From an uncultured Candidatus Saccharibacteria bacterium (lineage in GTDB: Bacteria > Patescibacteriota > Minisyncoccia > Ryanbacterales > GWA2-47-10b), in contig CAYHJF010000001.1 of the NCBI GenBank assembly GCA_964356915.1, positions 146,200 through 210,199 on the forward strand: a stretch of 64,000 nucleotides of DNA, written 5' to 3'. The notes beneath the pieces are model-generated. The model had not been told where the DNA came from. It did no database searches and was given only the letters and a program-made list of their open reading frames with translations. This document shows positions 21,021 to 51,065 of the stretch, in pieces. Within the stretch, counting starts at the first letter, position 1; every line of letters begins with the position of its first letter. Position numbers and translations under genes: made by a program.

Positions 21021-22550
21021 ATGGAACCCCTCACACAACTATTGGTTGTGGCGGCGGTTTTTCTCGTGGGATCGGGAATCGGATACTTCACGCGAAAAAT
21101 TGTTGCTCAACAACAGAAAAATTCGATCGAGCTATCGATCAAAAAGGCGACCCTCGAAGCTGAGAACGAAGCTCAGCGAATTGTCTTAGAAGCAAAAGAA
21201 AAAGCGACAAAGATCCTCGATGAGATAAAAGACGAGGAAAAAATTCGCGAAGCAGAGTACCACAAACGCGAAGAGCGCTTTGCAAAAAAAGAAGAGCAGT
21301 TTGAAGATAAAGCTCAAGACTTAGAAAAAGAAAAGAAAGATCTCCGAGAAAAAGTAGAGCGTGTTCGTGGCGCACAAGAAGCGCTCAAGCTCAAAGAAGA
21401 AGAGAAGCGTCTTGAACTCGAGCGTGTCGCGGGACTTTCTCGCGAAGAAGCCAAAGATACGCTGTATGCTGCAGTTGAAAAAGATTATGAAGGAGACCTT
21501 CTCGAACGCCTCCATAAACTCGAAATGACTGGTGAAGAGCGCCTGCAACGAAAAGCGCGCGACATTCTGGCATCTCTCATTCAACGCATTGCCACCTCAA
21601 CGGCATCCGAAGTTACAACAACAAGCATTACAATTCCGTCAGAAGATCTCAAAGGGAAAATCATTGGACGTGAAGGACGAAACATTCGTTCACTTGAGCG
21701 TGCCGCGGGTGTAGAGATTATTGTTGATGACACGCCCGGAGCAATCATTATTTCTGGATTTGATCCTGTCCGCCGTCACATTGCAAAAATGGCGCTTGAA
21801 GATTTGATTACCGATGGTCGCATCCAACCAGCAAAGATTGAGGAAGCGGTTGAAAAAGCAAAATCGCAAATTGAAAAAATAATGAAAGAAGCTGCGGAAG
21901 CTGCAGCATACGAAGTCGGAGTCTTTGACCTCGATCCTCGGCTCATGCAACTTTTAGGTAGACTTCGCTTTCGCACAAGCTATGGTCAAAATGTCCTCCA
22001 GCACTCAATCGAAATGTCTCACCTCTCTGGAATGCTCGCGAGCGAACTTGGCGCCGATGTTGGCGTCGCAAAAAAAGGAGCGCTCTTGCATGACATCGGA
22101 AAGGCAGTTGATCATGAAGTACAAGGAACTCACGTTGAAATCGGTCGACGTATTCTTCAAAAATTTGGCGTTGAATTGCCCGTTATTCAGGCGATGCAAT
22201 CACACCATGAAGAATATCCATACGAAACACTTGAATCAATCATCGTCCAAACCGCTGATGCAATCTCCGCTTCCCGCCCTGGTGCGCGCCGCGACTCTGT
22301 AGAAAATTATCTCAAGCGACTCGAAGATCTTGAATCAATCGCAACTTCTTTTGACGGAGTTGAAAAATCATATGCAATTCAAGCAGGTCGCGAAATCCGA
22401 GTGTTCGTAACGCCAGATAAAATAAATGATCTTGAAGCTCGCGCGATCGCTCGACAAATCGCAGACCGCGTAGAACAAGAACTCAAGTATCCGGGTGAAA
22501 TCAAAGTTGTCGTCATTCGTGAAAATCGCGTCATCGAATACGCTCGCTAA
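21021..22550 (+). CDS. rny: ribonuclease Y
   Basis: N-terminal TM, long K/E-rich coiled coil, KH domain (IIGREGRNIRSLE), HD domain (LLHDIGKAVDHE). 509 aa. Confidence 0.85.
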   Translation: MEPLTQLLVVAAVFLVGSGIGYFTRKIVAQQQKNSIELSIKKATLEAENEAQRIVLEAKEKATKILDEIKDEEKIREAEYHKREERFAKKEEQFEDKAQDLEKEKKDLREKVERVRGAQEALKLKEEEKRLELERVAGLSREEAKDTLYAAVEKDYEGDLLERLHKLEMTGEERLQRKARDILASLIQRIATSTASEVTTTSITIPSEDLKGKIIGREGRNIRSLERAAGVEIIVDDTPGAIIISGFDPVRRHIAKMALEDLITDGRIQPAKIEEAVEKAKSQIEKIMKEAAEAAAYEVGVFDLDPRLMQLLGRLRFRTSYGQNVLQHSIEMSHLSGMLASELGADVGVAKKGALLHDIGKAVDHEVQGTHVEIGRRILQKFGVELPVIQAMQSHHEEYPYETLESIIVQTADAISASRPGARRDSVENYLKRLEDLESIATSFDGVEKSYAIQAGREIRVFVTPDKINDLEARAIARQIADRVEQELKYPGEIKVVVIRENRVIEYAR

Positions 22551-33578: not shown

Positions 33579-35045
33579 TTATTTCACCCAATGTTTTTTC
33601 TTGATCTCTCCTACCTTTTCTTCTTCGAGAGCCGATGACTTATTCTTTGCTTCTTTTGCTAAATTTGCAAGTTCTGAATCAGAGAGAGAAACGAGCTCAT
33701 TGAGACGTTCTGTAAGATATTTTTTTGTATTACGCTTTGGATCATCAAGCACTTCTTCGAGGAGCGCGTTGAGAAGCATTCCTATGCGCGGCCCTGGATC
33801 AAGCTTTCCAATCTTCATAACCGCATCTCCATTAATTTTTAGCATCTTCACTGAGATGGGATCGCGTGAAAGTTTTTCGATAAGAAAACGAAAGTGACGC
33901 AACTTATAAGGCTCTGCCTTAGGTACGCCTGATCCGATCCGATCGCACACACGAACCTTGATCAAGTCTTCCATATTTTCTGGACCAACTTTTCTAATAA
34001 GACGCCTCACCGATCCTTCGCCAACCTCATCCACGTTGTAGTAAAAAAGATGAAACCGAACAAGAGTCGTTACCTTTGCGACTAATTCACTCGGATACTT
34101 CAAACGCTTGAGGATTTCTTCTGTCATTGTCCCACCGACAATTTCATGCCCATAAAACGTAGAGTCTGGACCGTCTCCACGCTTTGCCCGCGGTTTACCA
34201 ACGTCATGTAACAAAGCGGCGAGCCGTACATCGAGCGCCCAATGCTTTGACGCCGCATGACGCAACGCGTATAGATTGTGCTCCCATACAGAAAAAATAT
34301 GATGCTTGTTTTGCCCCACAGCAAACCCCTCTTCGAGTTCTGGCATTACATATTTTAAAACACCGAGTTCACGCATCCGATCTAAAACCACATGCGGCTC
34401 CGGAGACATAATAATTTTTGAAAATTCATCTCGAATACGTTCCTGAGAAATAAATCTCAAAAGCTTTGCTTCTTTTTTTATCGCGGCCTCTGTCTCTGGC
34501 TCAAGTGAAAATCCGAGCTCAGCGACCAAACGAAGTGCTCGCATAATACGTAGCGCGTCTTCTTTAAATCGCTCGACTGGTTTTCCAACCGCACGTAAGA
34601 TACCTTCTTTAAAATCTTTTTTTCCGTTAAATAAATCTATCACTTCATCCGTTCGTACATTGAGCGCCACGGCATTGATAGTAAAATCGCGACGAGCAAG
34701 ATCATCCTTGAGAGATTTCCCAAATTCAACTTTATCCGGATGACGCTTATCAGAGTACTTTGATTCTGTGCGATAAGGTGTTACCTCAACCATCTTCAGT
34801 GATTCGTCAGAGACATTTTTAGGAAATATGGCAACGGTGCCAAAATCATTTTCATAAACACTGTCAGGAAATATTTTTTGAATTTCTGACGGTGTCGCGC
34901 TCGTCGTAATATCCCAATCCTTTGGTTTGCGCCCTATTAAAAGATCTCTCACGCATCCGCCAACGATATACGCTTCAAAATGAGCGGCTTCAAGTGCTTC
35001 TATAACAGCGACTATTTCTTTAGGAATCGGAGCTTGTTTAGACAT
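33579..35045 (-). CDS. cca: CCA-adding tRNA nucleotidyltransferase with C-terminal HD domain
   Basis: Pol-beta-like head (FEAYIVGGCVRDLLIGRKPKDWDITT), RRDFTINA, HD motif (LAALLHDVGKP). 488 aa. Consistent with tRNAs lacking an encoded CCA. Confidence 0.8.
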   Translation of the reverse strand: MSKQAPIPKEIVAVIEALEAAHFEAYIVGGCVRDLLIGRKPKDWDITTSATPSEIQKIFPDSVYENDFGTVAIFPKNVSDESLKMVEVTPYRTESKYSDKRHPDKVEFGKSLKDDLARRDFTINAVALNVRTDEVIDLFNGKKDFKEGILRAVGKPVERFKEDALRIMRALRLVAELGFSLEPETEAAIKKEAKLLRFISQERIRDEFSKIIMSPEPHVVLDRMRELGVLKYVMPELEEGFAVGQNKHHIFSVWEHNLYALRHAASKHWALDVRLAALLHDVGKPRAKRGDGPDSTFYGHEIVGGTMTEEILKRLKYPSELVAKVTTLVRFHLFYYNVDEVGEGSVRRLIRKVGPENMEDLIKVRVCDRIGSGVPKAEPYKLRHFRFLIEKLSRDPISVKMLKINGDAVMKIGKLDPGPRIGMLLNALLEEVLDDPKRNTKKYLTERLNELVSLSDSELANLAKEAKNKSSALEEEKVGEIKKKHWVK

Positions 35046-36754: not shown

Positions 36755-38164
36755 TCATCGAGGTAACCCTCGACTCACGTCTTTTTTGATAAAGAGCACG
36801 TAACCATCCGAGGCAACGCCCACGACCGAAAGATCGATTTTGGCGCCACGCTCCATCCATTCGTCCTCGAGCGGGTAATGGTAAAACCCTGAGTAGATGG
36901 TTCGTCCATCGACATCCCAGACCGTGAGGTGTAAAGATGTCGGTTCACGACCATCAAGGGTTATGATTTTCCACTGAGTCCGCGTAAATGAAACGTCGAG
37001 CTCGCGCAACGGCTCCTCGAGACGAAATACGTACCGCACGATGGAGCCAACTTCCGCCACATCGACAGCTTGATGATACACATCAAGGCTTGCGAGTGAC
37101 ACAGATGCTGGAGCTCGATATGGAACATCCGGCTTCCAAAGAGGATCTTTCATCATGATGACGTATAGAACGGCAATCACCATGAGTGCTCCGACGACGA
37201 ATCGACGAAATCCTGAAGATCTTACGAGAGCCGTCATGATAATGACGACGATGAGTACCGTGAATACAATTATATATGGCACATCACCGACCTCACTAAG
37301 GCGCTGCCTCATTCTTTCAATGAACGGACGTGGATCGCCGAGATCTAAGTCCGGCATCGTTGGGAATGAAATGTGAGGCATTGCTGGCAACGAAACACTT
37401 GGAAGAGAAATATGAGGAAGCTCTGTAGGAAGATAGCTCGTCGGGTCCTTATACCCGTATTTCGCGCGAATATCTCGCTCCATTTGTGGAAGCTTCTCGA
37501 GAATCTGTATTTGCTCTGGCGAGAGCGACTTTATCTTTGCCGTCTCACGCAATGCCTTACCAATCGCTCGGAGAGGATCAAGCTCGCGCTCCATTTGAGC
37601 ATGCTTAACCTCAAGAACAACATCATCGGTAAACATTCCACCGAAAAGCCCGCATGACTTTACGATGAAGAGCATCCCAATGATTACGGAAAGTGCGATC
37701 ATCCAGCGTCGCGCGGGATGCGTTTCCCACTCACGCGGAAGACTGAGCCCCCACGCAACAAGAAACATCAAAACCGCAAGCACAAGCCAGAGTGGGCTGT
37801 AGTTATGCCACGCCCACGGCAACAATTGCCATGCGCCAACAGTCACAAGAATAATCGCGCCCGCAAGAATAATTCCGTTTCTGCGAGGAGCAATTGTCGC
37901 CCATGCAGCCCCGAACGCTCCTCCAATACGCGACCGTATTGATACACGCGGAGTTGAAACAATAACCGGAGCTGGCACTGGCATTACTGCCGGCGTAGAC
38001 GCAATACTAGATGCTCGTGAAGACGGCTGCTGACCACGATTTGATACCGTGAGATCCCATAGCCGCACAACAATCGCACCACCAACAACAAGTACAGCAA
38101 TTACTGTAAAGAAAATCTCCATTACGGAGTCCCTCCACTCGTAGGCGTCCCGCCACTCTTCCAA
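36755..38164 (-). CDS. polytopic membrane protein, hypothetical (469 aa)
   Basis: Multiple TM helices, Pro-rich linker, C-terminal soluble domain. No motif recognised. Confidence 0.4.
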   Translation of the reverse strand: MEEWRDAYEWRDSVMEIFFTVIAVLVVGGAIVVRLWDLTVSNRGQQPSSRASSIASTPAVMPVPAPVIVSTPRVSIRSRIGGAFGAAWATIAPRRNGIILAGAIILVTVGAWQLLPWAWHNYSPLWLVLAVLMFLVAWGLSLPREWETHPARRWMIALSVIIGMLFIVKSCGLFGGMFTDDVVLEVKHAQMERELDPLRAIGKALRETAKIKSLSPEQIQILEKLPQMERDIRAKYGYKDPTSYLPTELPHISLPSVSLPAMPHISFPTMPDLDLGDPRPFIERMRQRLSEVGDVPYIIVFTVLIVVIIMTALVRSSGFRRFVVGALMVIAVLYVIMMKDPLWKPDVPYRAPASVSLASLDVYHQAVDVAEVGSIVRYVFRLEEPLRELDVSFTRTQWKIITLDGREPTSLHLTVWDVDGRTIYSGFYHYPLEDEWMERGAKIDLSVVGVASDGYVLFIKKDVSRGLPR

Positions 38165-39624
38165 CGCTTCATCATACCTCCGATAAGACTGGTAACCCGC
38201 CCAATTGCGGCCGACACTTTCGATTTCTTGGGATCCTTCTTCTTAACCGTCTCGAACACTTTCGTCGCTTGAGCGGTAAGAGCGCCGATACTAAGAGGTC
38301 CGCCACCATCTCCCGAGTTAATGACGACAGCAACATTACCTTCCTTGATCGCGTCCATTTGACGCTCGAGGAGGCCCAGCGTTGCAGCCTGCTCAGGAGA
38401 AAGACCAGCACCATCTCGAATCTTGGTAATCCGAGCGGCTTCACCTTCGCCCTCAAGTTCGCGGCGTACTTTTTCGGCAGCACCGAGTCGTTCGATACCA
38501 CGTCCTTCGCCGTCAGCCTCGAGGAAACGAGCGTCGCCCGTTGCCCGCCCTTGGATGCGCTTGCGTCGCGCTTCTTCGGTTGCCTTACTAAGCACAACGT
38601 CAACGATCATGAAGCGCTTCAGTTTGATACCCCACTCATTGAGTTGAGCCTCTACTGAAGCGCAGATCTGCGAGTTAAGTGAACTTTCTTTTTCTTTCTT
38701 ACCATCGTCCTTGTTATCAATAATTTTCGCCACCTTCTCAGCAAGCACATCATCAACGTTCATGCCACCGAGCATTGTACGAATACGATCCTCGATCATT
38801 GAGAGAACGGCATGGATATAATCATCGACAAGATATGTAGCCTCAAAAGCTGATTTCTGATCGCGACGGTACTCGACCTCAATGATCAATTCACACTTGA
38901 GACCAACCGTATCATCAGCGACATCAACCTGACTCCGGAACTCAACTTTCGAATCCTTTCCGTCACGCCTGAGCTCTCTTTGAAGTGCGATCTCTTCTTC
39001 TGTTGTCCCTTCGGGGAAACCAAGAAGCCACAATGTCAATTTGCGATCTCCGATATAGAGCCGCTTCTTTACGTAGAAGATTCCAGGGATAATGAGATAG
39101 AATCCCTGTGGAAGAGTCTTGCAATAGATACCAAAGAGCTCAACCACATCAACGTATTGTTGAGGAATGATACGTGCACATCCATAGAAAAAAACAGCGA
39201 AAACGATAGCAGGCCATACTTTTGCCGCGCCCGAGAGAAAAAATACTCCCGCGATCGCAAACAAAAATAAAATACCCACTATGGTAAATGAAAAACGCAT
39301 CCAAATCTTCGGCAGAAAACCAAAACCCTGATCCTCTGTATCCAGAAGAGTGGGATTTTTTTTGTGACGATGCCACATGTAGAACCCGCCAAAAGCAAAT
39401 ACCAATGCTGTCACTTCGAACAAGAAGAATGGTGAATATGAATCTTTCACCCACCATGCAAGAAATACAGCTATACCCATAAGAAGACCATCGATAATAA
39501 TCTGCCAACGTTTCATAGATGCCTTTGCACCCACAAGAAGACCATCGACAATCATATGCCAACGTTTCATAGATGCCTTTGCACCCACAAGAAGACCATC
39601 GACAATCATATGCCAACGTTTCAT
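38122..39624 (-). CDS. SPFH/band-7 (flotillin-like) membrane protein with tandemly repeated N-terminus
   Basis: Two TM helices. SPFH core (YVDVVELFGIYCKTLPQGFYLIIPG...). C-terminal coiled-coil E/A/R-rich flotillin-like tail. Three in-frame MKRW(H/Q)(M/I)I(V/I)DGLL starts; the likely true start is the third (about 39516). Confidence 0.55.
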   Translation of the reverse strand: MKRWHMIVDGLLVGAKASMKRWHMIVDGLLVGAKASMKRWQIIIDGLLMGIAVFLAWWVKDSYSPFFLFEVTALVFAFGGFYMWHRHKKNPTLLDTEDQGFGFLPKIWMRFSFTIVGILFLFAIAGVFFLSGAAKVWPAIVFAVFFYGCARIIPQQYVDVVELFGIYCKTLPQGFYLIIPGIFYVKKRLYIGDRKLTLWLLGFPEGTTEEEIALQRELRRDGKDSKVEFRSQVDVADDTVGLKCELIIEVEYRRDQKSAFEATYLVDDYIHAVLSMIEDRIRTMLGGMNVDDVLAEKVAKIIDNKDDGKKEKESSLNSQICASVEAQLNEWGIKLKRFMIVDVVLSKATEEARRKRIQGRATGDARFLEADGEGRGIERLGAAEKVRRELEGEGEAARITKIRDGAGLSPEQAATLGLLERQMDAIKEGNVAVVINSGDGGGPLSIGALTAQATKVFETVKKKDPKKSKVSAAIGRVTSLIGGMMKRWKSGGTPTSGGTP

Positions 39625-39650
39625 AGACGCCTTTCTTGCCCTTTATCACG
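39490..39650. repeat. three tandem copies of a 54-bp repeat covering the SPFH gene start and RBS region
   Basis: ccaacgtttcatagatgcctttgcacccacaagaagaccatcgacaatcatatg unit. Period exactly 54 (copies anchored at 39505, 39559, 39613). The third copy is diverged (gacgcctttcttgccc). Confidence 0.7.
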
Positions 39651-39727: not shown

Positions 39728-39756
39728 TTGACAAATAGGATAAATAATGCTAATAT
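39728..39756 (+). promoter_or_regulatory. near-consensus sigma-70 promoter (TTGACA - 17 nt - TAATAT) driving the GC-rich non-coding region
   Basis: TTGACA at 39728-39733, 17-nt spacer, TAATAT at 39751-39756. Confidence 0.55.
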
Positions 39757-39764
39757 ATTTATCG

Positions 39765-40306
39765 AGAGCAAGGACTGCCCAAATTCTTATATAAATTAAA
39801 TAATCTTGGGCTCTTTCCTTGCTCCATCATGAAACCTAATAAACACAGAAATTGGGTTGCGCGATGGAGCTGGGGGAATATACTAGCTCTAGACTTGGTG
39901 AGGGGACTCGAGCCTCTCCCAAGGTGGGGGTCTACTATGGTCAGCGAGTGGTCTCGTCGAGCAGCGCGAGGACATGCGCGCTTCGACTCAGCGATCGTCC
40001 AGAAGCGCGAACGCGTCACTGAACGAATCGCACCCACAACCAGCGGACAGCTCGCTGGAGCGCACCCGGGGCAGACTGCCAAAACGGCTGCCACCACCAC
40101 ACACAAGCGTCCTCCTCAGTAGGACGCCCCTCCACGCCCGGCCTTCAGGGGGCCGAATCATCAGTCGGAGAAACCCGACCGAATAGAGGCGCTCACCCGG
40201 CGCCCAAAAGCAGATCGATACACTGTACAAAGTATCGGCGGAAGAGTGCCCCGCCAAGGCATTCAAAAAAAAGGGGGACCTGCGCAAGCGGGCCCCCATT
40301 TTTCTT
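39765..40306 (+). ncRNA. candidate large structured ncRNA (about 520 nt, GC-rich, unidentified) with its own promoter and terminator
   Basis: No protein-like ORF on either strand. Sharp GC rise. At least 8 perfect local hairpins (gctccatc/gatggagc, gcgtcct-cctcagt-aggacgc, ggcgc-tcacccg-gcgcc, cgatac-actgtacaaa-gtatcg and others). Upstream consensus promoter, terminal terminator. Confidence 0.4.
40272..40306. terminator. bidirectional GC-clamp terminator (ends the ncRNA candidate on plus and xer on minus)
   Basis: aaaaaaaa-ggggg-acctgcgcaagcgggc-ccccc-attttt. Confidence 0.6.
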
Positions 40307-40326: not shown

Positions 40327-41202
40327 CTACTTTCTTCTACGTCCGTGAAATGCCTTGTGCACATCTCGTAACTGCCGATCGGTTACGTGCGTATAAATTT
40401 GTGTCGTCGTAATCGATGAGTGCCCCAACAGTGCCTGTACCGATCGAAGATCCGCGCCATTGATAAGTAAGTCAGTCGCAAACATATGACGCAGCGTATG
40501 AGGTGTTACCTTTGACCCAATACCAGCAGCAATCGCATATCTATGTACAAGACGCTCAATTTGCCGAACTGTAAGGCGAGTTGGTTTTTTTCCTGTAGCA
40601 ACAAATAATGCCTCTAAAATATCTTCTCGGCGAGCAAAATAATCTTTCAAAATCTGCTTTGCTTCAGAAGAAAGAAAAACAAGGCGCACCTTTCCACCTT
40701 TCCCGCGAACAGAAAATTCATCTCGTTTGAGATCGATGGAATCTTGATTAAGGGCAACGAGTTCAGAGATTCGAAGACCCGTAGAAAACAAAAGCTCTAA
40801 AATCGCACGGTCTCGCAACCCCTGCAACGTCGATGTTTTTGGCGTAGCAAGTAATCGTTCAAGATCTTCAATGCGCGGGATATCAATGTCTCGATCCTGA
40901 AGTTTTGCAAGTTCTATTCGATCGGGTGCAAGTGATACTATCTCTCGGCGTACAAGATATTTTAGAAATTGCCTCAACGCGATGAGATGATAATTACGCG
41001 TACGAACAGAAAGATGCTCTCGATTGAGCCACAATCGAAAAGCGCGTATATGATCATCATTAATATCGGCAGGGGATTCTATCTGCTCCCGCAAAAAAAA
41101 TCGTTCGAGGTAATGACGATAATTTTCAATCGTTTTTTGAGACCTTCCGCGCCCAAGCTCGAGGTCTTCAAGAAACTCTCGGAGAGCAATCTTAATATTC
41201 AT
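40327..41202 (-). CDS. xerC: tyrosine site-specific recombinase, XerC/XerD family
   Basis: N-terminal SAM-like core-binding domain. Catalytic R...HxxR...Y (GLRISEL, HTLRHMFAT, LGHSSITTTQIYTHV). 291 aa. Confidence 0.8.
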   Translation of the reverse strand: MNIKIALREFLEDLELGRGRSQKTIENYRHYLERFFLREQIESPADINDDHIRAFRLWLNREHLSVRTRNYHLIALRQFLKYLVRREIVSLAPDRIELAKLQDRDIDIPRIEDLERLLATPKTSTLQGLRDRAILELLFSTGLRISELVALNQDSIDLKRDEFSVRGKGGKVRLVFLSSEAKQILKDYFARREDILEALFVATGKKPTRLTVRQIERLVHRYAIAAGIGSKVTPHTLRHMFATDLLINGADLRSVQALLGHSSITTTQIYTHVTDRQLRDVHKAFHGRRRK

Positions 41203-41292
41203 AGATATTTATAGGCAATGTCGCACAATATTAGTGTACCTGAGCGGGGGCTTGATTTAAATAGAAAAGTCGTATATAATGGCGTTCATATT

Positions 41293-41559
41293 ATGTTGTC
41301 GACAAAAACTAAAACAAAGGTGATCGGAAAACACCAGATCCATGAAAAAGACACGGGTTCTTCAGCCGTGCAAATCGCCCTGCTTTCAGAGCGTATTGAT
41401 TCGCTCGCAGAGCATCTCAAAAAGTATAAAAAAGACAACCACTCTCGTCGTGGTCTCTTGAAGATGGTTGCAAAACGTAAATCTCTTCTCGAATACTTAG
41501 CGTCAGGTGACCAAAAAGTATTGTTGGATCTTCGGAAGAAATTCGGTCTCAAAAAATAA
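41293..41559 (+). CDS. rpsO: 30S ribosomal protein uS15
   Basis: DTGSSAVQIALLSERIDSLAEHLKKYKKDNHSRRGLLKMVAKRKSLLEYL is the full S15 signature. Start set at the internal Met (MLSTKTK...) to give the usual 88 aa. Confidence 0.85.
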   Translation: MLSTKTKTKVIGKHQIHEKDTGSSAVQIALLSERIDSLAEHLKKYKKDNHSRRGLLKMVAKRKSLLEYLASGDQKVLLDLRKKFGLKK

Positions 41560-42096
41560 ATGAGCGATCTTAAACACAAAGACCAGCGCGTCGCTGTATT
41601 CATCGATGCGCAGAATCTTTATCATTCAGCACGTAGTCTGTTTGGCGCCCGAGTCAATTTTAAAGAAGTTCTCAAGATAGCGGTCAGCGGGCGCAAACTC
41701 ATTCGAGCATTTGGATACGTGATTAGTACAAAAACGGGAGAGGAGCAACCATTTTTTGAATCTCTCACGAGCCTCGGCATCGAAACACGAGCAAAAGAAC
41801 TCCAAGAATTTTTCGGTGGCGCAAAAAAAGCCGACTGGGATGTTGGTCTTGCTATCGACGCGGTTCGTACCGCGGAGATTGTCGATACCGTCATCATCTG
41901 TTCCGGAGATGGGGACTTTGTACCACTCGTTGAGTATTTAAAAAATAATGGAAGACGGGTAGAAGTCATCGCATTTGGCCGCAGCTCATCACTCAAACTT
42001 AAAGAAGCGGCTGATGACTTTACCGATCTTGGTGCATCACAGAAATTTTTGATGCGCATTCACCGCAATACTAGGAAGACTGAAAACGATGCTTGA
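41560..42096 (+). CDS. NYN-domain (LabA/DUF88-like PIN-fold) putative ribonuclease
   Basis: VAVFIDAQNLY ... DVGLAIDAV ... VIICSGDGDFVPLVEYLKNNGRRVEVIAF, the acidic-residue pattern of NYN domains. Inserted between rpsO and pnp. Confidence 0.6.
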   Translation: MSDLKHKDQRVAVFIDAQNLYHSARSLFGARVNFKEVLKIAVSGRKLIRAFGYVISTKTGEEQPFFESLTSLGIETRAKELQEFFGGAKKADWDVGLAIDAVRTAEIVDTVIICSGDGDFVPLVEYLKNNGRRVEVIAFGRSSSLKLKEAADDFTDLGASQKFLMRIHRNTRKTENDA

Positions 42097-44236
42097 ACGC
42101 ACAAAATTTGAAACTACTGTCGCTGGTAAAAAAATAATTGTTGAATTTAATCCGATCGCCTCGCAGGCAAACGGTTCTGTTATGGTTCGTATGGGGGATA
42201 CCATCATTTTAGGCACGGCCGTCATGTCAAAAAATGCCCGCGAATCAATTGATTTTTTCCCACTCGTCGTTGATTACGAGGAAAAATATTACGCGGCCGG
42301 ACGAATCTTGGGATCTCGCTTCGTACGTAGAGAGGGACGCCCTTCTGAAGAAGCCGTTCTTATCTCGCGTCTCATTGACCGTACGATCCGTCCTCTTTTC
42401 GATCATCGTATTCGTAACGATGTACAGGTTGTTCTCATGGCACTTTCAGTTGACGAAGAAAACAGTCCTGATATCCCCGCAATTATGGCGGCATCACTCG
42501 CACTCGGTACATCAAATATTCCATGGGATGGGCCGGTAGCAGGAGCGCGCATTGCTCATATCGATGGAAATTTTGTCGTAAACCCAACTGATACAGAACG
42601 AGCGCTCTCAGAGATGGACCTTATCATCGCGGGAGGACATGGTCACATCAACATGATCGAAGGCAAAGCAAAAGAAATTCCTGAAGAACGCATACTTCAA
42701 GCTTTCGAAACCGCACTCAAAGAAATCGACCAACTCTCAAAGTTTCAAGAAGAGATTATTTCAAAAATCGGAAAAGAAAAATCTATACCAAAAATTGAAG
42801 AAGTTCCAGCAGAAGCTCACGACTCTCTTCAAAAACATTTTCGTACACGAATTGGCGATGCAATGTATACGCTTGGCAAAAAAGAACGCGAGCATGCGCT
42901 CTCAGATCTAAAATTTGAGTGGATGGAATCAATAAAAGAACGTTGCCCTGAACTCTCAAAGGGTATGGCGTCTTTACTCTTTGAAGAGACAATTGATGAA
43001 ACTGTTCATGAAAGAATATTAACAAAAGGAGAGCGCCCCGATGGACGCCACGTAAAAGAAGTTCGCCCACTACTTGCAGAAACAAGTCTTCTCCCGCGCG
43101 CACATGGATCCGGACTTTTTTTTCGCGGAGATACTCATATTCTATCGACCGTAACACTTGGAGCGCCGGGGGATGAGTTGCTGATCGAAGGCATGGATGT
43201 ACGAACAAAGAAACATTTCATTCATCACTATAACTTTCCTCCATTTTCAGTAGGAGAAACTGGACGCATGGGGTCTCCTGGACGGCGCGAGATCGGTCAC
43301 GGAGCTCTTGCAGAAAAAGCTCTTGAAGCAATTATTCCTCCAAAAGAAGTGTTCCCTTATACAATTCGTATCGTCTCCGAAACACTCTCATCAAATGGAT
43401 CGTCTTCGATGGGATCAGTTTGCGCATCTCTTTTAGCACTTATGGATGCAGGTGTACCGATTAAAAAACCGGTCGCGGGAATCGCGATGGGTCTCATGAT
43501 GGAAAGTGACACAAACTATAAAGTGCTTACTGACCTCCAAGGACCTGAGGATCATCATGGCGACATGGATTTTAAGGCCGCTGGAACAAAAGATGGTCTT
43601 ACTGCGATTCAAATGGATGTAAAGGTAAAAGGCGTAACGTTGGGGATTCTCAAAGATGCACTCGCAGATGCAAAAGATGCTCGCATGAAAATCATGAGCG
43701 TACTCTTAGAATGTATTGGTGAATCACGCAAAACACTCTCTCCCTATGCGCCTCGTATCATTCAAATGCAAATCCCAATTGATAAAATTCGCGACGTCAT
43801 TGGCCCAGGCGGTAAAACAATCAACGAGATTATTGCCGAAACTGGAGCTCAAATCGATATCGAACAAACCGGCGATATCTATATTACCGGTATGACTCAA
43901 GAAGCAGCCGAAAAGGCACAAGAACGAATCGCCCTCATTACAAAAGAAATTGAAGTTGGAACTATTTATAAGGGCAAGGTAACGCGCATCTTTGAATTTG
44001 GCGCGATGGTTGAAGTCGCTCCAAAACAAGAAGGTCTTGTTCATATCTCTGAACTTGCTCATCAGCGAGTTAACAAGGTTAGCGATGTCGTACAAGTCGG
44101 CGATGAAGTAACCGTACAAGTTACGCAAATTGATAGTCTTGGACGCATCAATCTCTCTATCAAAGCACTCACGGAAAAACCCGATGGTATGCCTGATGAG
44201 GAAAATCACAAACCTCGTCCGCAACACCGACGCTAA
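42089..44236 (+). CDS. pnp: polyribonucleotide nucleotidyltransferase (PNPase)
   Basis: Two RNase PH domains, KH (IGPGGKTINEII) and S1 (GTIYKGKVTRIFEFGAMVEV) domains. 715 aa. Confidence 0.9.
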   Translation: MLERTKFETTVAGKKIIVEFNPIASQANGSVMVRMGDTIILGTAVMSKNARESIDFFPLVVDYEEKYYAAGRILGSRFVRREGRPSEEAVLISRLIDRTIRPLFDHRIRNDVQVVLMALSVDEENSPDIPAIMAASLALGTSNIPWDGPVAGARIAHIDGNFVVNPTDTERALSEMDLIIAGGHGHINMIEGKAKEIPEERILQAFETALKEIDQLSKFQEEIISKIGKEKSIPKIEEVPAEAHDSLQKHFRTRIGDAMYTLGKKEREHALSDLKFEWMESIKERCPELSKGMASLLFEETIDETVHERILTKGERPDGRHVKEVRPLLAETSLLPRAHGSGLFFRGDTHILSTVTLGAPGDELLIEGMDVRTKKHFIHHYNFPPFSVGETGRMGSPGRREIGHGALAEKALEAIIPPKEVFPYTIRIVSETLSSNGSSSMGSVCASLLALMDAGVPIKKPVAGIAMGLMMESDTNYKVLTDLQGPEDHHGDMDFKAAGTKDGLTAIQMDVKVKGVTLGILKDALADAKDARMKIMSVLLECIGESRKTLSPYAPRIIQMQIPIDKIRDVIGPGGKTINEIIAETGAQIDIEQTGDIYITGMTQEAAEKAQERIALITKEIEVGTIYKGKVTRIFEFGAMVEVAPKQEGLVHISELAHQRVNKVSDVVQVGDEVTVQVTQIDSLGRINLSIKALTEKPDGMPDEENHKPRPQHRR

Positions 44237-44255: not shown

Positions 44256-45083
44256 ATGACAGATGATGGGCGTCCGACTATTCGGACGATGAAAACAGAC
44301 GTTGACGAACTCCTCACAAAAGAACCGGAGTCAATTTTGAAATCCATCACTGACGGTCCGCGTGAACGCTACGAACGTGGCTACGCTCCACCTCACGGTC
44401 AAAAAAATTATCTCCGTATTATACTTGGCATACTCTTGATGTTTGGTATTACAGGAGCAGGAATTGGCATCTACTCTCTTTTTGCCCCAAAACCAATTCC
44501 TCCCAAATTGCCCCTCGCGATCCCGCGCTCATTCATACCAACCGACTCAACTCACGAGCTTAAGATTACAGCGGGGGATAGAACTGGACTTATTGGCGCA
44601 CTTCAAGATTTAAGAACATCACCAAACAAATCATTCGCCCACATACCTTTTATTGTGGCAGAATTTACAAAAGATCCTCATGTAGGCACAATCCAAGAAT
44701 TTTTTGGAACACTGCGCATCACACTTCATCCTGATGTTGAAAAAAGTCTCACGGGAAAATGGAATATCCTATCCTCCAAAGGTGGAATCATTTTGGTTTT
44801 TGAAATCAAAGATGAGCAAAAGGCTCTGGGGGGCATGTTACGGTGGGAAGAAAAATTCGTACAAGACCTAACACCCGTTACGGGCGTTGCTCCCGAAGGT
44901 ACAATTGAATTTCACGATATTGTAATAAAAAACAACATCGCTCGCGTCGTTACACTCTCAGAAACAGAGGACCGATCAATCGGATACGCCATACTCCCAC
45001 AGGGGTTTCTTTTAATCACGACCTCGGAGGCGTCTCTTCGCGAATCAATCGACCGATTTATTGCCGGGCCCATTACAAACTGA
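44256..45083 (+). CDS. hypothetical membrane-anchored protein
   Basis: Single TM (ILGILLMFGITGAGIGIYSLF). Start chosen downstream of the pnp stop. No motif recognised. Confidence 0.35.
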   Translation: MTDDGRPTIRTMKTDVDELLTKEPESILKSITDGPRERYERGYAPPHGQKNYLRIILGILLMFGITGAGIGIYSLFAPKPIPPKLPLAIPRSFIPTDSTHELKITAGDRTGLIGALQDLRTSPNKSFAHIPFIVAEFTKDPHVGTIQEFFGTLRITLHPDVEKSLTGKWNILSSKGGIILVFEIKDEQKALGGMLRWEEKFVQDLTPVTGVAPEGTIEFHDIVIKNNIARVVTLSETEDRSIGYAILPQGFLLITTSEASLRESIDRFIAGPITN

Positions 45084-45095
45084 TACGATACTCTT

Positions 45096-45449
45096 ATGAA
45101 CATGAAAGAATTTGAATCATTACTCCTCGCTGAAAAAACAGAACTCGAACGGTCACTTAAAGCAACAGGAATGTCGGATCCTGCGCATCAAGAAGAAACT
45201 GATACGGTTCGTCCTAACATGAATCTTGATCCTGCCGATAAAATGGATGTTGCTGATGAACTCGAAGAGTACGAGACCGATGTTACAATCAACGCGACAC
45301 TAGATAGTCAATATGAAAATGTGCTCGCGGCACTCGAACGAATTAAAGAAGGGACGTATGGAACTTGCGAAGTTGGAGGCGAGATGATGAACGAAGAACG
45401 ATTACGGGCAAACCCCGCAGCCCGCACCTGCGTTGAACATTCTCAGTAA
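45096..45449 (+). CDS. DksA/TraR-family-like protein (2-Cys variant of the C4 finger)
   Basis: Coiled-coil N-terminus. C-terminal GTCEVGGEMMNEERLRANPAARTCVEH resembles the DksA/TraR zinc-finger region (CxxC...RL.A.P.A..C..C) but has only two Cys. Confidence 0.4.
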   Translation: MNMKEFESLLLAEKTELERSLKATGMSDPAHQEETDTVRPNMNLDPADKMDVADELEEYETDVTINATLDSQYENVLAALERIKEGTYGTCEVGGEMMNEERLRANPAARTCVEHSQ

Positions 45450-45450
45450 T

Positions 45451-45478
45451 AAAAAATGCCCTGGTGGGCATTTTTTAT
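45451..45478 (+). terminator. rho-independent terminator
   Basis: aaaaaatgccc-tggt-gggcatttttt. Confidence 0.7.
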
Positions 45479-45643
45479 TTTATAGAAGTCCAAACTCGCC
45501 AACTGGGGAAATGTACCGTAAGTACAATAAAAATACTATAAACAATAAAACTACGATACCGAGCGCAAATGGCACTGTACGATTCATGTATCTATAATAC
45601 GCAACTTATTGCGAAAAAACGAGCAGGCTGTTAAAACAAACAT

Positions 45644-47164
45644 ATGTCGAGCACTCTTGTATCCGGACAGGTCGTAGGTCTGAAAGGCGTTCGCATTGAT
45701 GTTGAGATCGATCTTTTACCCGGACTTCATCGTTTTACAATCGTTGGACTTCCTGACAAAGCAACTGAAGAAGCGCGTGAACGAGTATCCGCAGCGATTA
45801 AAAACTCTAACTTTCGTCCTCCCCAAAAGAAAAATCACCGTATCACCGTAAATCTCGCGCCGGCAGATCTCCCCAAAGAAGGCGCCTTATTTGATATACC
45901 GATCGCGCTCGGATATCTACGTGAATCTGAACAGTTAAAATTTGACCCGCAAGGAAAATTTTTCGTAGGAGAGCTCGCACTCGATGGTACCGTACGACCT
46001 GTGCGTGGCATACTACCTCTCGCTATCGCGGCTCGTGATTTTGGATGCACGGAGCTTTTTATCCCAAAAGAAAACGTACCTGAAGCATCTTTGATTGATG
46101 GGATTTCTATCTTTGAAGTCTCGACGTTGCGCGCGCTTACTGATCACCTCACAGGAACAGCACCCATCACACCAACAGCTCATAGAAAATTTGTACCAAC
46201 TCCTCATGAAACACGACATGATTTTCATGACATTAAAGGGCAAGAATTCGCGAAGCGAGGATTAGAAATCGCGGCAGCGGGAAATCATCATGTCGCATTT
46301 ATTGGACCCCCAGGAACAGGTAAGACACTCCTCGCGCGAGCGCTAGCCTCTGTTTTGCCACCGCTTTCTTTTAAGGAAGCTCTTGAAATCACATCAATCC
46401 ATAGTATTGCAGGCTCACTCGGACAAGGAGTCATGAGTACTCGTCCTTATCGTAGCCCACACCATACAACATCCTACGTCGCCCTCATTGGAGGTGGAAC
46501 AATTCCAAAGCCAGGAGAGATCACTCTCGCCCATAAAGGAGTACTATTCCTTGATGAATTTCCTGAATTTGAGCGACGTGTCATTGAAACGCTTCGCGAA
46601 CCACTCGAGGAGCGCTCGGTCACCGTCTCACGCGCCAAAGGTTCAATGAATTTCCCTGCTGACATCATGCTTGTTGCAGCAATGAATCCGTGTCCGTGCG
46701 GGAATCGCGGGTCTCAAAAAGAATGCGTCTGCGCGCCTCGAGATCTTCTGCGCTATTCAAGAAAAATATCTGGCCCAATCATTGATCGTATTGATATTTG
46801 GCTCACAATGTCTCCCGTAGACTATAAAAAATTGGAAGAAAAATCTTCCGGAGAATCTTCCACCCTCATACGAAAACGTGTTGAGAAAGCACGTTTACTC
46901 CAACAAAAACGTTTTTCAAAAACTACAATCTCCACAAACAGTCAGATGGGCATTAAAGAACTTAAAACATTCGCCTCTCTCGGCGAAGATGAGCAACAAT
47001 TACTCGAAGTTGCGGCAAAAAAACTCGACCTCTCCGCACGAGCATACCATCGAGTTATTAAGGTTGCGCGCACAATCGCAGATCTTGAAAACTCAAAGAC
47101 GATTAAAAAGGAACACCTTTTGGAAGCTCTTCGCTATAGACCACACCTTGAGACCCTTGAGTAA
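45644..47164 (+). CDS. comM: YifB/ComM-family Mg-chelatase-like AAA+ ATPase
   Basis: N-terminal Lon-protease-like domain. Walker A GPPGTGKT, Walker B LFLDEF. C-terminal Mg-chelatase ChlI domain and Cys cluster (CPCGNRGSQKECVC). 506 aa. Confidence 0.8.
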   Translation: MSSTLVSGQVVGLKGVRIDVEIDLLPGLHRFTIVGLPDKATEEARERVSAAIKNSNFRPPQKKNHRITVNLAPADLPKEGALFDIPIALGYLRESEQLKFDPQGKFFVGELALDGTVRPVRGILPLAIAARDFGCTELFIPKENVPEASLIDGISIFEVSTLRALTDHLTGTAPITPTAHRKFVPTPHETRHDFHDIKGQEFAKRGLEIAAAGNHHVAFIGPPGTGKTLLARALASVLPPLSFKEALEITSIHSIAGSLGQGVMSTRPYRSPHHTTSYVALIGGGTIPKPGEITLAHKGVLFLDEFPEFERRVIETLREPLEERSVTVSRAKGSMNFPADIMLVAAMNPCPCGNRGSQKECVCAPRDLLRYSRKISGPIIDRIDIWLTMSPVDYKKLEEKSSGESSTLIRKRVEKARLLQQKRFSKTTISTNSQMGIKELKTFASLGEDEQQLLEVAAKKLDLSARAYHRVIKVARTIADLENSKTIKKEHLLEALRYRPHLETLE

Positions 47165-49136: not shown

Positions 49137-51065
49137 GTGGCAATTCTCGACGGGCTCAATGATCGACAAAAAGAGGCAGTTTTGACTCAAAACGGGCCTT
49201 TATTAGTTATTGCCGGCGCAGGATCAGGAAAAACAAAAACTATCACTCACCGAATCGCCCATTTAATCGCAAACGGCGTAGAACCCAGTAAAATCCTTGC
49301 GGTTACATTCACCAATAAAGCCGCCGAAGAAATGAAAGAGCGGGTCTTCGCGCTCCTTCAAAAAGAAGGGCTGCATTCCTCAGAATGGAACCGTCCTTTT
49401 ATTGGAACCTTTCATGCGCTCGGTGTATCCATACTTCGCAGTCATGGATCTGCGATTGGCATCCCAAAAAACTTCAACATTCTCGACGAAGAAGACACTC
49501 GTCAAGTTTTTAAAAATCTCGTAAAAGAGTACGAACTTGATCCTGATGTATACGCACCCCAGCGCATACGATCGATCATCTCGAAATTAAAGCAGGACCT
49601 AACAGACCCCGCGCTCTATGCGGAACGTGTTGGCGCAAGTCCCTTTGAGCGCGCGGTCCTCATGATATACGGAGCGTATGAAGCAAATCTTTTCAAAACT
49701 CACGCCCTCGACTTTGACGATCTTTTAATGAAAACAATTATCTTATTTGAAAAATCAGAAACTGCGCGAGCATACTACGAACAACGCTGGGATTACATCC
49801 ATATCGACGAGTACCAAGACACAAATCAAGCGCAATATCTTCTCTCGCGTATTCTCGCGAGACGCACGAGCAACATCACAGTCGTTGGAGACGTTGATCA
49901 GGCGATTTATTCTTGGCGAGGGGCTGATTGGAGAAATATCTTACAATTTGAAGAAGATTGGCAAAATACAAAAACTATTCTTCTTGAAGAAAACTATCGC
50001 TCAACAGAAGTTATTCTTGAGGCTGCCAATGCGCTCATAGAGCACAATACGGAACGAAAAGAAAAAATTCTCTGGACTCAACGTAAAGGTGGGGAAAAAA
50101 TTGGACTCATCATTCTTGAAGATGAAAAGATGGAAGCACTCTTCATCGCTACCTACATACAACTTCTTGAAAAAAATGGCGCGCGTCTCGACGAGATAGC
50201 AGTACTTTTTCGTACCAATGCGCAATCGCGCGCAATCGAAGAAATGTTTTTAAAAAGAAAAATTCCTTACCGTCTTGTTTCTGGAGTTCGCTTTTATGAA
50301 CGAAAAGAAATTAAAGATGTTCTTGCGTATCTCAAATTCGCCTCAAACCCGTCTGATACGCTTTCTCAAAAAAGAATCTTGAATACACCTCCACGCGGTA
50401 TCGGCAAAGTTACCATGCTTAAATATCTAGGCGGAATGGCACTCGGGCGCCCTGAACAAGAGAAAATAGCCCGATTCCAAGACGTTATGGCTCGCATACA
50501 AAATGATATTACTTCTCTCCCAACATCCACAGCATTAAAAAATCTCCTCAATCATGCCGGCTTTGCATTCCACTATAAGGGGAACAAACTCGAGGAAGAC
50601 CGCTGGCAAAACATTCAAGAACTTCTTTCAGTTGCTCAAAAATTTGATAGCGTCAGTCCTCCCGAGGGGATTGAACGATTACTAACTGAAGCAGCACTGA
50701 TGAGCGAAACTGAAGAAACGGAAATACCGGAACATCAAGTCACACTCCTTACCGCACACTCAGCAAAGGGTCTTGAGTATCGCCATGTTATCATTGCCGG
50801 CATGGAAGAAGGATTATTTCCTCACAGTCTTTCCGAAACAAATTCGGACGTGGAAGAAGAGCGGCGACTTTTTTATGTTGCTCTCACACGAGCAAAAGAG
50901 AAACTTATTATCACACTCTCTCATAAACGGATGATTTTTGGAGAAACGTCTTACAATGATCCGTCTCGATTCTTAGGAGAAATCCCTGATCACCTTATCG
51001 AACATGCCTCTCTTGATCCACGCCACGACTCATCATATGAAGAAGAAACCATCTCGTTTGACTAA
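49137..51065 (+). CDS. pcrA: UvrD/PcrA-type ATP-dependent DNA helicase
   Basis: Motif I AGAGSGKTKTITHR, motif II DEYQDTN, and the rest of the SF1 helicase motifs through VALTRAKE. 642 aa. Confidence 0.85.
   Translation: MAILDGLNDRQKEAVLTQNGPLLVIAGAGSGKTKTITHRIAHLIANGVEPSKILAVTFTNKAAEEMKERVFALLQKEGLHSSEWNRPFIGTFHALGVSILRSHGSAIGIPKNFNILDEEDTRQVFKNLVKEYELDPDVYAPQRIRSIISKLKQDLTDPALYAERVGASPFERAVLMIYGAYEANLFKTHALDFDDLLMKTIILFEKSETARAYYEQRWDYIHIDEYQDTNQAQYLLSRILARRTSNITVVGDVDQAIYSWRGADWRNILQFEEDWQNTKTILLEENYRSTEVILEAANALIEHNTERKEKILWTQRKGGEKIGLIILEDEKMEALFIATYIQLLEKNGARLDEIAVLFRTNAQSRAIEEMFLKRKIPYRLVSGVRFYERKEIKDVLAYLKFASNPSDTLSQKRILNTPPRGIGKVTMLKYLGGMALGRPEQEKIARFQDVMARIQNDITSLPTSTALKNLLNHAGFAFHYKGNKLEEDRWQNIQELLSVAQKFDSVSPPEGIERLLTEAALMSETEETEIPEHQVTLLTAHSAKGLEYRHVIIAGMEEGLFPHSLSETNSDVEEERRLFYVALTRAKEKLIITLSHKRMIFGETSYNDPSRFLGEIPDHLIEHASLDPRHDSSYEEETISFD

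Follow-up and report, generated by a model that had tools for sequence, protein, structure and literature searches.

A LabA-like NYN-domain gene between rpsO and pnp is a conserved part of the S15-PNPase gene array in Parcubacteria-type CPR bacteria

Analysis of a 64,000-nucleotide stretch of contig CAYHJF010000001.1 (hereafter the window) revealed a 178-aa NYN-domain gene lying directly between rpsO and pnp. Many members of the Parcubacteria branch of CPR share this arrangement, which recurs far beyond chance, and the NYN protein is under unusually strong purifying selection. The reading that we favor, with moderate confidence, is that the protein is a housekeeping metal-dependent single-stranded RNA (ssRNA) endonuclease, co-expressed with ribosomal protein S15 and polynucleotide phosphorylase (PNPase), that takes part in ribosome-linked RNA processing or decay. 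The genes and signals of the locus are as follows.

41252..41280, + strand: candidate promoter-like site TTGATT-17 nt-TATAAT from a consensus scan, with the -10 hexamer ending 12 nt before the rpsO ATG
41293..41559, + strand: rpsO, ribosomal protein S15, 88 aa (PF00312, E = 1.2e-26; TIGR00952 equivalog, 101.8 bits against a cut-off of 63.65)
41557..41562, + strand: rpsO/NYN junction, in which TAA (41557-41559) is followed by the NYN ATG with a 0-nt gap and in the same reading frame
41560..42096, + strand: NYN gene, 178 aa, ATG start; stand-alone LabA-like protein of COG1432 type, predicted to be a metal-dependent ssRNA endoribonuclease
42073..42078, + strand: AGGAAG, putative Shine-Dalgarno-like element for pnp, within the 3' end of the NYN gene and 10 nt ahead of the pnp ATG
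42089..42096, + strand: NYN/pnp junction ATGCTTGA, an 8-nt overlap from the pnp ATG at 42089 to the end of the NYN TGA at 42096
42089..44236, + strand: pnp, polynucleotide phosphorylase, 715 aa, with two RNase PH domains, a KH domain and an S1 domain (Pfam)

Both junctions were read directly from the sequence, and the coordinates, the 0-nt gap and the 8-nt overlap given for the 178-aa gene in an earlier note on this DNA are exact. The S15 start was placed by homology at the ATG at 41293, from which orthologues align from residue 1, rather than at the mechanical ORF start at 41218. PNPase was assigned at equivalog level as well (NF008805, 913 bits, cut-off 471; TIGR03591, 902 bits, above cut-off), so the locus, with equivalog-level S15 and PNPase genes in one orientation and S15 first, qualifies as an rpsO-pnp operon. 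As in the classical E. coli-type operon, the PNPase gene comes after the S15 gene in the same direction; unlike that operon, the locus has a third gene between them, has lost the spacer and the leader, and has all three open reading frames abutting or overlapping. Neither junction of NYN leaves any intergenic space that could hold an E. coli-type regulatory spacer. Direct reading of the sequence upstream of the NYN ATG found no Shine-Dalgarno-like purine run, which, together with the rpsO stop abutting that ATG, suggests termination-reinitiation coupling, and no terminator-like site was found on the + strand from 41293 to 44236. Given the abutting and overlapping genes, the lack of an internal terminator-like site, the AGGAAG element before pnp and the missing ribosome-binding site of NYN, the three genes look like one translationally coupled unit in the window genome. 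The promoter-like site, if used, would give a very short rpsO leader; promoter-like sites in the region were no more numerous than in shuffled sequences, so it is a candidate and not evidence. Shuffled versions of the rpsO 5' region (41203-41300) folded as well as the region itself (z +0.6). Rfam searches of the window at the gathering threshold, and of the locus at E ≤ 1 and E ≤ 10, returned only tRNAs and chance-level matches, with no known cis-regulatory RNA in or beside the operon. The composition of the NYN gene (GC 0.46, GC3 0.42) matches that of its neighbors, indicating that it is not a recent insertion, and the window holds no NYN paralogue elsewhere.

The protein clearly belongs to the LabA-like NYN family, as the earlier note had proposed. 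It matched the PF01936 (NYN) profile over positions 1-144 of 145 (E = 1.4e-35; 123.3 bits against a cut-off of 24.2), and its predicted model is a compact 178-aa domain with a PIN-like alpha/beta/alpha sandwich whose beta-sheet is parallel. Strand 2 is not followed by a helical insert, and the model can be superposed on the structure of Vibrio parahaemolyticus VPA0982 (PDB 2QIP). A profile search of the PDB with the family alignment found nothing beyond 2QIP. The active-site residues D16, N19, D94, S115 and D117 are all present, in three segments.

41605..41616, + strand: D16-A-Q-N19 at the end of strand beta1, with the first catalytic Asp and the conserved Asn; D16 and N19 are invariant in 80/80 orthologues
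41824..41859, + strand: K89-K-A-D92-W-D94-V-G-L-A-I-D100, a basic/acidic loop and the N-terminus of helix 3, with the second catalytic Asp
41902..41916, + strand: S115-G-D117-G-D119 (SGDGD motif) at the end of strand beta4, with the third catalytic Asp

Among the 80 orthologues compared (the best 80 of at least 554 loci), K89, K90, D92, W93, D94, V95, G96 and D100 of the second segment and G116, D117, G118 and D119 of the third are invariant, position 115 being S or T. The invariance in all of these 80 of D16, N19, D92, D94, D100, D117 and D119 indicates that the active site is intact and under selection. By alignment and published assignments (PMC11346440, PMC6217404), D16 corresponds to D14 of VPA0982, D13 of the Bacteroides fragilis CRISPR-associated NYN protein and D358/D178 of MARF1; D94 corresponds to VPA0982 D92 and MARF1 D426/D246, and D117 to VPA0982 D115 and MARF1 D452/D272, where the VPA0982 matches assume a 3-residue numbering offset of the 2QIP chain. 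N19 and S115 are the counterparts of the conserved Asn and Ser of MARF1, S115 aligning with S270. The aspartates matching D16, D94 and D117 are essential by mutagenesis in both MARF1 and the B. fragilis protein (PMC6217404, PMC11346440). The window protein is mildly basic (pI 8.6), with the invariant K89/K90 beside the catalytic loop, and has no extra RNA-binding domain; many of its orthologues carry long, lysine-rich, low-complexity C-terminal tails. Residues R45, Y53, E62, E75, Q82, K89/K90 and E135 belong to a surface whose invariance is specific to the clade. Assignment to neighboring families failed on several counts. The archaeal-type hypothetical equivalog TIGR00288 gave 24.7 bits over residues 89-158 only, against a cut-off of 178.45; NYN_YacP/Rae1 (PF05991) gave no match at E ≤ 0.01, the first Asp being followed by the D-A-Q-N rather than the G-Y-N pattern; the PRORP and Zc3h12a types (PF16953, PF11977) gave no Pfam matches and were not among the top structural matches of this single 178-aa domain; and the CRISPR/defense NYN profile (PADLOC PDLC01154) was matched at 52.6 bits over positions 149-300 of 310 only.

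To place the locus among its relatives, one genome per GTDB species was scanned, yielding at least 554 loci with a NYN relative, and the best 80, spanning Ryan-, Sungi-, Nealson-, Azam-, Staskawicz-, Yonath-, Taga-, Nomura- and Campbellbacteria and Paceibacterota, were analyzed. Within these best 80, rpsO lies directly upstream of NYN in 76/80 species (median gap 65 nt) and pnp lies downstream within 4 kb in 68/80 (median gap 122 nt). The NYN-pnp distance is ≤300 nt in 51 of them and an overlap or ≤13 nt in 17, and in about a third pnp is off the array or more than 300 nt away. A second sample comprised 62 metagenome loci, each with at least 1.5 kb upstream of pnp, which were retrieved through PNPase and not through NYN, and therefore avoid circularity. 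Upstream of pnp, 55/62 of these loci have both S15 and NYN, none has S15 without NYN, and 7 have neither. The order is thus not unique to this genome, nor is the NYN active site degenerate, the outcome that, along with a failure in NYN/PIN profile searches, would have spoken against the earlier note. Separately, one short contig has S15 three bases before pnp, with NYN absent.

Synteny extends to more distant members of the group. Four distant cluster representatives with 55-62% identity also follow rpsO; the next gene is pnp in two of them and an uncharacterized gene in the other two, after which comes rpsF-ssb-rpsR or comM. Homologues with ≤54% identity, including one from Falkowbacteria and one of 413 aa from a Nanoarchaeota MAG, have unrelated neighbors; the contig gene lists of P0141 and P0160 contain neither rpsO nor pnp, and the context of P0121 is limited to a contig of 924 nt. 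The rpsO-NYN pair is kept where pnp has left the array (L029, L041, L061, L064-L066, P0122 and P0129), and loci of the Yonathbacteria type lack pnp but keep the rest of the array, with rpsO-NYN followed by a membrane protein gene, a dksA-like gene and comM. Altogether, syntenic inheritance of NYN was seen across more than 130 sampled loci at 60-85% identity. The conserved core across relatives is rpsO-NYN, which is tighter than NYN-pnp, and the ancestral order is xerC (divergent)/rpsO-NYN-[leader]-pnp-membrane protein-dksA-like-comM, with rpsO-NYN as the most stable pair and with all spacers lost in the window lineage. The main refinement of the earlier picture is that the conserved partner of NYN is S15 at least as much as PNPase.

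The strength of conservation was assessed from identities to the window proteins. In the NYN-retrieved set, mean identity was 66% for NYN, 57% for S15 and 52% for PNPase, and NYN was the more conserved protein in 67/67 paired comparisons with PNPase and 60/67 with S15. A parallel pattern was obtained in the PNPase-retrieved set (NYN 66.0%, S15 59.5%, PNPase 55.3%), with NYN exceeding PNPase in 61/62 and S15 in 54/62 pairs (Wilcoxon P < 1e-8 for both). A small nuclease evolving more slowly than a ribosomal protein is unusual, which argues for an essential role with many constrained contacts.

The spacing of the three genes forms a spectrum of which the window, with spacers and leader gone and the hairpin motif of its relatives' pnp leader absent, is one extreme. 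In most lineages a long hairpin leader of pnp's own sits between NYN and pnp, and NYN-pnp spacers of 90-200 nt almost always carry a long stable hairpin immediately before pnp. Common to a subset of these hairpins are an outer stem of CAGAU/AUCUG, an asymmetric internal loop rich in A and an inner stem of UAG/CUA; compensatory changes occur in 11/16 predicted pairs, and no Rfam family matched. In E. coli, a terminator-like hairpin follows rpsO and a long, autoregulatory hairpin leader precedes pnp; the leader hairpin of the relatives resembles the latter, and where their rpsO-NYN spacers are long a terminator-like hairpin often follows rpsO. Larger NYN-pnp gaps carry cargo that by eye is toxin-antitoxin-like (nucleotidyltransferase/HEPN-like and RelE/ParE-like), while no such genes were seen in the long rpsO-NYN spacers examined. 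A second, divergent NYN paralogue was noticed in one NYN-pnp gap. Because pnp is absent or distant in about a third of species and has a leader of its own in most lineages, and because many lineages carry a terminator-like hairpin directly after rpsO, tight NYN-PNPase coupling is lineage-specific. Co-expression with PNPase, as suggested earlier, is supported for the window genome by its sequence (no gap, no terminator-like site, AGGAAG before pnp); across relatives, pnp is sometimes displaced or absent.

The operon is embedded in a larger conserved neighborhood, and a further ribonuclease gene lies elsewhere in the window.

21021..22550, + strand: RNase Y (PF12072 RNase_Y_N, E = 9.3e-25, plus KH and HD domains)
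40327..41202, - strand: XerC/D-type tyrosine recombinase (PF00589, E = 2.3e-42), divergent from rpsO and in the same place in 36/80 related loci (best 80 of at least 554)
44256..47164, + strand: downstream syntenic block (Pfam, and tblastn in related loci), given as context only and comprising the next three genes
about 44256-45083, + strand: membrane-type protein of unknown function, its start at 44256 being inferred from the onset of conservation
45096-45449, + strand: DksA/TraR zinc-finger protein (Pfam)
45644-47164, + strand: ComM/Mg-chelatase-like ATPase (Pfam)

The xerC gene belongs to this conserved neighborhood and not to the function proposed for NYN. Since the syntenic block includes functionally unrelated genes, conserved order alone is weak evidence for a shared function, and the equally conserved positions of xerC and comM show that gene order in the clade is partly inertia. 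RNase Y is a canonical decay-initiating endonuclease, and its presence speaks against NYN being no more than a substitute decay initiator; the simple story in which NYN stands in for a missing enzyme of this kind was therefore rejected. Taken together with the tighter link to rpsO, RNase Y shifts weight toward a ribosome-related role for NYN.

Stand-alone LabA-type NYN proteins are abundant in bacteria, and to our knowledge none has a defined housekeeping function. The rpsO-linked group is the clearest genomic hint so far to such a function, a hint that rests on its fixed place between S15 and PNPase in a large uncultivated radiation and on a constraint stronger than that on both neighbors. 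The structural prototype of LabA-like NYN/COG1432 proteins, and the nearest structure to the window protein, is VPA0982, a structural-genomics protein without an assigned function or a reported rpsO/pnp context; the rpsO-linked CPR proteins form a separate orthologous group that is far more tightly conserved. Closest in proposed behavior is the B. fragilis CRISPR-associated NYN protein described by Chi & White (2024), a Mn2+-dependent, sequence-nonspecific ssRNA endonuclease that can cut both within an RNA and close to its ends, but not where the RNA is covered by a ribonucleoprotein (PMC11346440). Like the window protein it is of PF01936 type, has 2QIP and MARF1 as its nearest structures and carries three catalytic Asp residues, and its trimming of RNA left exposed by a bound protein complex is the behavior we propose here. 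In contrast, its gene adjoins cas6 in a type III-B CRISPR locus, with crRNA as the presumed substrate of its trimming, whereas there are no CRISPR genes at the window NYN, and the two proteins are connected by a weak, domain-level match only, through PADLOC. The NYN domain of mouse and human MARF1 (PDB 5YAA, 6FDL) cleaves ssRNA with Mg2+/Mn2+ (PMC6217404); it is eukaryotic, 13-18% identical, and needs fused LOTUS/RRM domains for substrate binding, which the window protein lacks. LabA and LalA of Synechococcus elongatus share the Pfam family and COG of the window protein (PMC5499597), LabA being known genetically as a circadian output regulator (PMC5499597), and two LabA/NYN proteins of Synechocystis were found to co-purify with ribosomes and Rbp3 (PMC12232666). 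These ribosome-associated cyanobacterial proteins are larger, Slr1870 at least carrying an OST-HTH domain, and none is linked to rpsO-pnp. A functional analogy is offered by Rae1/YacP (PF05991) of Bacillus subtilis, a small NYN-type nuclease that makes ribosome-dependent mRNA cuts and is encoded among translation and RNA-processing genes, although its Pfam family is a different one, marked by a GYN motif and a pair of basic helices at the C-terminus.

The fullest survey of PIN-like nucleases lists the LabA-like NYN group as "function unknown", with SpoU, RNase T and Udg4, and not rpsO or pnp, among the neighbors that it names, and reports that other NYN subfamilies adjoin tRNA or rRNA methyltransferases or RNase T (PMC5499597). 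Full-text searches found no literature joining NYN with Patescibacteria, CPR or Parcubacteria, and none joining CPR with PNPase and ribonuclease; among papers on COG1432, PF01936 or DUF88, the PIN-superfamily classification and an OST-HTH paper alone were relevant. We could not find a published description of the rpsO-NYN-pnp context, and the family itself is already known, so that this is not a new kind of system.

By analogy with the family members studied biochemically, the most likely activity of the window protein is Mg2+/Mn2+-dependent ssRNA cleavage with little sequence specificity, and from the same biochemistry we infer a role in RNA processing or decay. NYN is a fixed third gene of the ancient rpsO-pnp unit in the Parcubacteria (Paceibacteria) branch of CPR, and in the window genome it would be expressed from one transcript with S15 and PNPase, with translational coupling at both junctions. 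The enzyme may make internal cuts in single-stranded regions left uncovered in RNA undergoing assembly or translation on the small ribosomal subunit, its putative ribosome-proximal targets being rRNA precursors and/or mRNAs, and the 3' ends so made would be entry sites for the 3'-5' phosphorolytic PNPase, which would trim or degrade the products. Catalysis, the RNA substrate and cooperation with PNPase or the ribosome are thus the predicted elements of this model. The rpsO-linked NYN appears to be a good candidate for a core CPR RNase, and in some lineages it is translationally fused into the S15/PNPase expression unit. If it is indeed an endonuclease linked to the ribosome or to PNPase, the RNA-processing repertoire of these reduced-genome bacteria would gain a core enzyme, and the protein would provide a testable entry into the maturation of unusual rRNAs and the turnover of RNA in CPR. 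A bolder form of the proposal, which we advance only tentatively, is that it is a core nuclease of ribosome biogenesis or RNA processing, not recognized before, that is specific to CPR of the Parcubacteria type, has close relatives among DPANN archaea and acts on the S15-bound pre-30S particle with PNPase, for example in 16S rRNA 3' end maturation or the excision of the rRNA insertions characteristic of CPR; if this were true, it would represent a new class of housekeeping RNase for bacteria.

The alternative that survives best, which we consider possible but hold with low confidence, dispenses with PNPase. NYN would be a dedicated 30S/16S rRNA maturation nuclease tied to S15, similar in role to the PIN-domain nuclease Nob1 or to YbeY, or removing the rRNA insertions frequent in CPR, and its adjacency to pnp would be inherited backbone. 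The tighter association of rpsO-NYN (76/80, median 65 nt) than of NYN-pnp (68/80, 122 nt) among the best 80 of at least 554 loci is consistent with this, as are the persistence of the pair where pnp has left the array, the rpsF-ssb-rpsR genes that come downstream of the pair in one relative, the conservation of NYN above that of a ribosomal protein, the co-purification of cyanobacterial LabA/NYN proteins with ribosomes (PMC12232666) and the coverage of decay initiation by RNase Y. However, relatives with long spacers often have a terminator-like hairpin between rpsO and NYN, and the best structural matches include neither Nob1 nor any other canonical PIN domain.

Somewhat less probable is that NYN has simply been carried along, having entered the rpsO-pnp spacer once in the ancestor of Parcubacteria and having been kept there by rare rearrangement while serving an unrelated function such as tRNA processing or LabA-like regulation. 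The equal synteny of the unrelated xerC, comM and dksA-like genes fits such a history, and so do the variable transcriptional architecture, with hairpins after rpsO and separate leaders before pnp, the unrelated neighbors of more distant homologues, and the location of other NYN subfamilies beside tRNA/rRNA methyltransferases or RNase T (PMC5499597). If the position were inherited synteny alone, the gene would be one more conserved unknown. Mere inheritance would be hard put to account for overlaps or gaps of ≤13 nt on both sides that recur in several sub-lineages, for toxin-antitoxin-like genes that entered NYN-pnp gaps and none of the long rpsO-NYN spacers examined, or for the PNPase-retrieved set, in which S15 occurs upstream without NYN in 0/55 loci.

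A role in cis, in which NYN would act on the rpsO-NYN-pnp mRNA, its cuts setting the S15:PNPase ratio or contributing to PNPase autoregulation, is improbable. In E. coli, the rpsO-pnp transcript is processed in its intergenic spacer by RNase III/RNase E cuts, which NYN would replace; the gene does occupy that very spacer, and many relatives keep the covarying long hairpin with its A-rich internal loop before pnp (11/16 pairs compensatory). Yet NYN is still fully conserved in the window genome and in about 17/68 relatives without spacer or hairpin, it is kept in relatives without an adjacent pnp, and a single cis target would hardly account for conservation above that of S15. Since no spacer or leader is left to process in the window lineage, processing of the rpsO-pnp transcript itself, which the earlier note had entertained, cannot be the main role of NYN here.

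Still more doubtful is the notion that NYN is not an RNase at all, and instead either binds RNA without catalysis or is a DNA nuclease of the FEN-like kind. Room for it is left by the LabA protein of cyanobacteria, which is known from genetics only (PMC5499597), but the catalytic acidic residues are all invariant, the compact 178-aa model has no FEN helical arch, NYN domains being described without one (PMC5499597), and every biochemically tested PF01936-type NYN protein (MARF1, B. fragilis) cuts ssRNA. Finally, a mobile toxin or defense nuclease landed by chance in the operon is strongly disfavored and was rejected, for the weak PADLOC NYN match (52.6 bits) is at domain level only and the toxin-antitoxin-like cassettes inserted next to NYN in relatives are outweighed by vertical inheritance with synteny (more than 130 sampled loci, 60-85% identity), native composition, the lack of a partner gene and of a paralogue in the window, neighbors that are rpsO, pnp and xerC rather than cas or defense genes, and the absence of NYN homologues from 50,697 phage records. 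An identical protein is recorded from a "Patescibacteria group bacterium", which bears out the assignment of the genome to CPR. In public records the NYN protein is named "NYN domain-containing protein" or "LabA/DUF88 family protein", and its closest named relatives come from Ryanbacteria and Giovannonibacteria.

Immediately ahead of rpsO, the ribosomal protein S15 gene, a candidate promoter-like -10 hexamer (within window region 41252-41295) ends only 12 nt before the ATG, which implies that the rpsO mRNA would be near-leaderless and would lack an autoregulatory 5' structure of the kind known from the E. coli rpsO mRNA. At its other end, rpsO is divided from the gene for the putative NYN endoribonuclease by a single TAA, with both genes in the same reading frame (window 41557-41562). 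Among the sampled contigs, S15 and pnp, the PNPase gene, were found without an intervening NYN gene only in the metagenome contig L175 (BBPG01000296.1), whose PNPase is 51% identical to that of the window, as follows:

L175 1-273, S15 gene, ending 3 nt before pnp, with NYN absent between them

L175 shows that, towards the margin of the clade sampled, S15 and pnp do occur in the classical two-gene arrangement.

In the related loci (one genome per GTDB species, the 80 best of at least 554), the spacer between NYN and pnp is an insertion hot-spot, with insertions at the following positions:

L019 4500-5155
L059 4544-5987
L055 2624-3120
L058 4696-5213
L070 5444-5716
L050 4587-5162

By eye, the cargo comprises candidate nucleotidyltransferase/HEPN and RelE/ParE-type toxin-antitoxin pairs, and in L050 a second, divergent NYN paralogue. 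The NYN-pnp spacers of relatives, including L004, L005, L035, L042, L045, L051, L052, L056, L062, L074 and others, also carry a long conserved hairpin directly 5' of pnp, with an outer stem CAGAU/AUCUG, an A-rich internal loop and an inner stem UAG/CUA. Compensatory changes were observed at 11 of its 16 predicted pairs, and no Rfam family matched it. The hairpin, which the window lacks, is probably an autoregulatory leader of pnp in Parcubacteria.

Many NYN orthologues extend into a low-complexity, lysine/serine/threonine-rich C-terminal tail of 30-250 residues in which no Pfam domain was found (examples being proteins P0122, P0127, P0137, P0165, P0168 and others, and those of loci L029, L036, L037, L041 and L061), and across the 80 loci longer tails tend to accompany a pnp that is not tightly adjacent. 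In the window protein, such residues number only about 20. One long-tailed homologue comes from a MAG annotated as Nanoarchaeota (DPANN), GCA_018815145.1:

L081 4001-5242, 413-aa NYN homologue P0165

P0165 is 53% identical over the NYN domain, its tail is likewise low-complexity, and its gene adjoins a family-B DNA polymerase gene; this suggests either that CPR bacteria and DPANN archaea have this NYN group in common or that the contig was mis-binned.

Between the SPFH/Band7 gene and the divergent recombinase gene xerC, the window contains an ORF-poor stretch of 64-65% GC, compared with 45% for the window:

38122-39624, - strand, SPFH/Band7 gene
39840-40305, + strand, ORF-poor GC-rich stretch, ~460 nt
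40327-41202, - strand, xerC

The stretch is preceded by TTGACA-17-TAATAT at ~39729-39758 and its 3' end is a GC hairpin with a T-run (~40268-40305). Its + strand folds far more stably than shuffles (z -6.0, 0/100), and folding of the - strand is not beyond shuffles (z -1.3). It matched no Rfam family, gave no tmRNA prediction and had no nucleotide similarity across the 80 related loci. Since the equivalent position in close relatives holds unrelated small GC-rich ORFs, the stretch may represent either a structured RNA specific to this lineage or a small gene that was acquired. The neighbouring SPFH/Band7 gene has at its 5' end a 54-nt unit in 3.0 copies with 95% matches (window 39475-39634), encoding an 18-aa segment three times over at the protein's N-terminus (MKRWHMIVDGLLVGAKAS...).

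Further RNA-related genes of the window are:

21021-22550, + strand, RNase Y (RNase_Y_N + KH + HD)
33579-35045, - strand, HD-domain enzyme of the CCA-adding/poly(A) polymerase family
51004-51801, + strand, KsgA/RsmA, the 16S rRNA dimethylase

The window yielded no tmRNA; in one relative, a tmRNA gene lies ~2 kb upstream of rpsO:

L056 1325-1727, + strand, tmRNA gene (Rfam RF00023, 135 bits)
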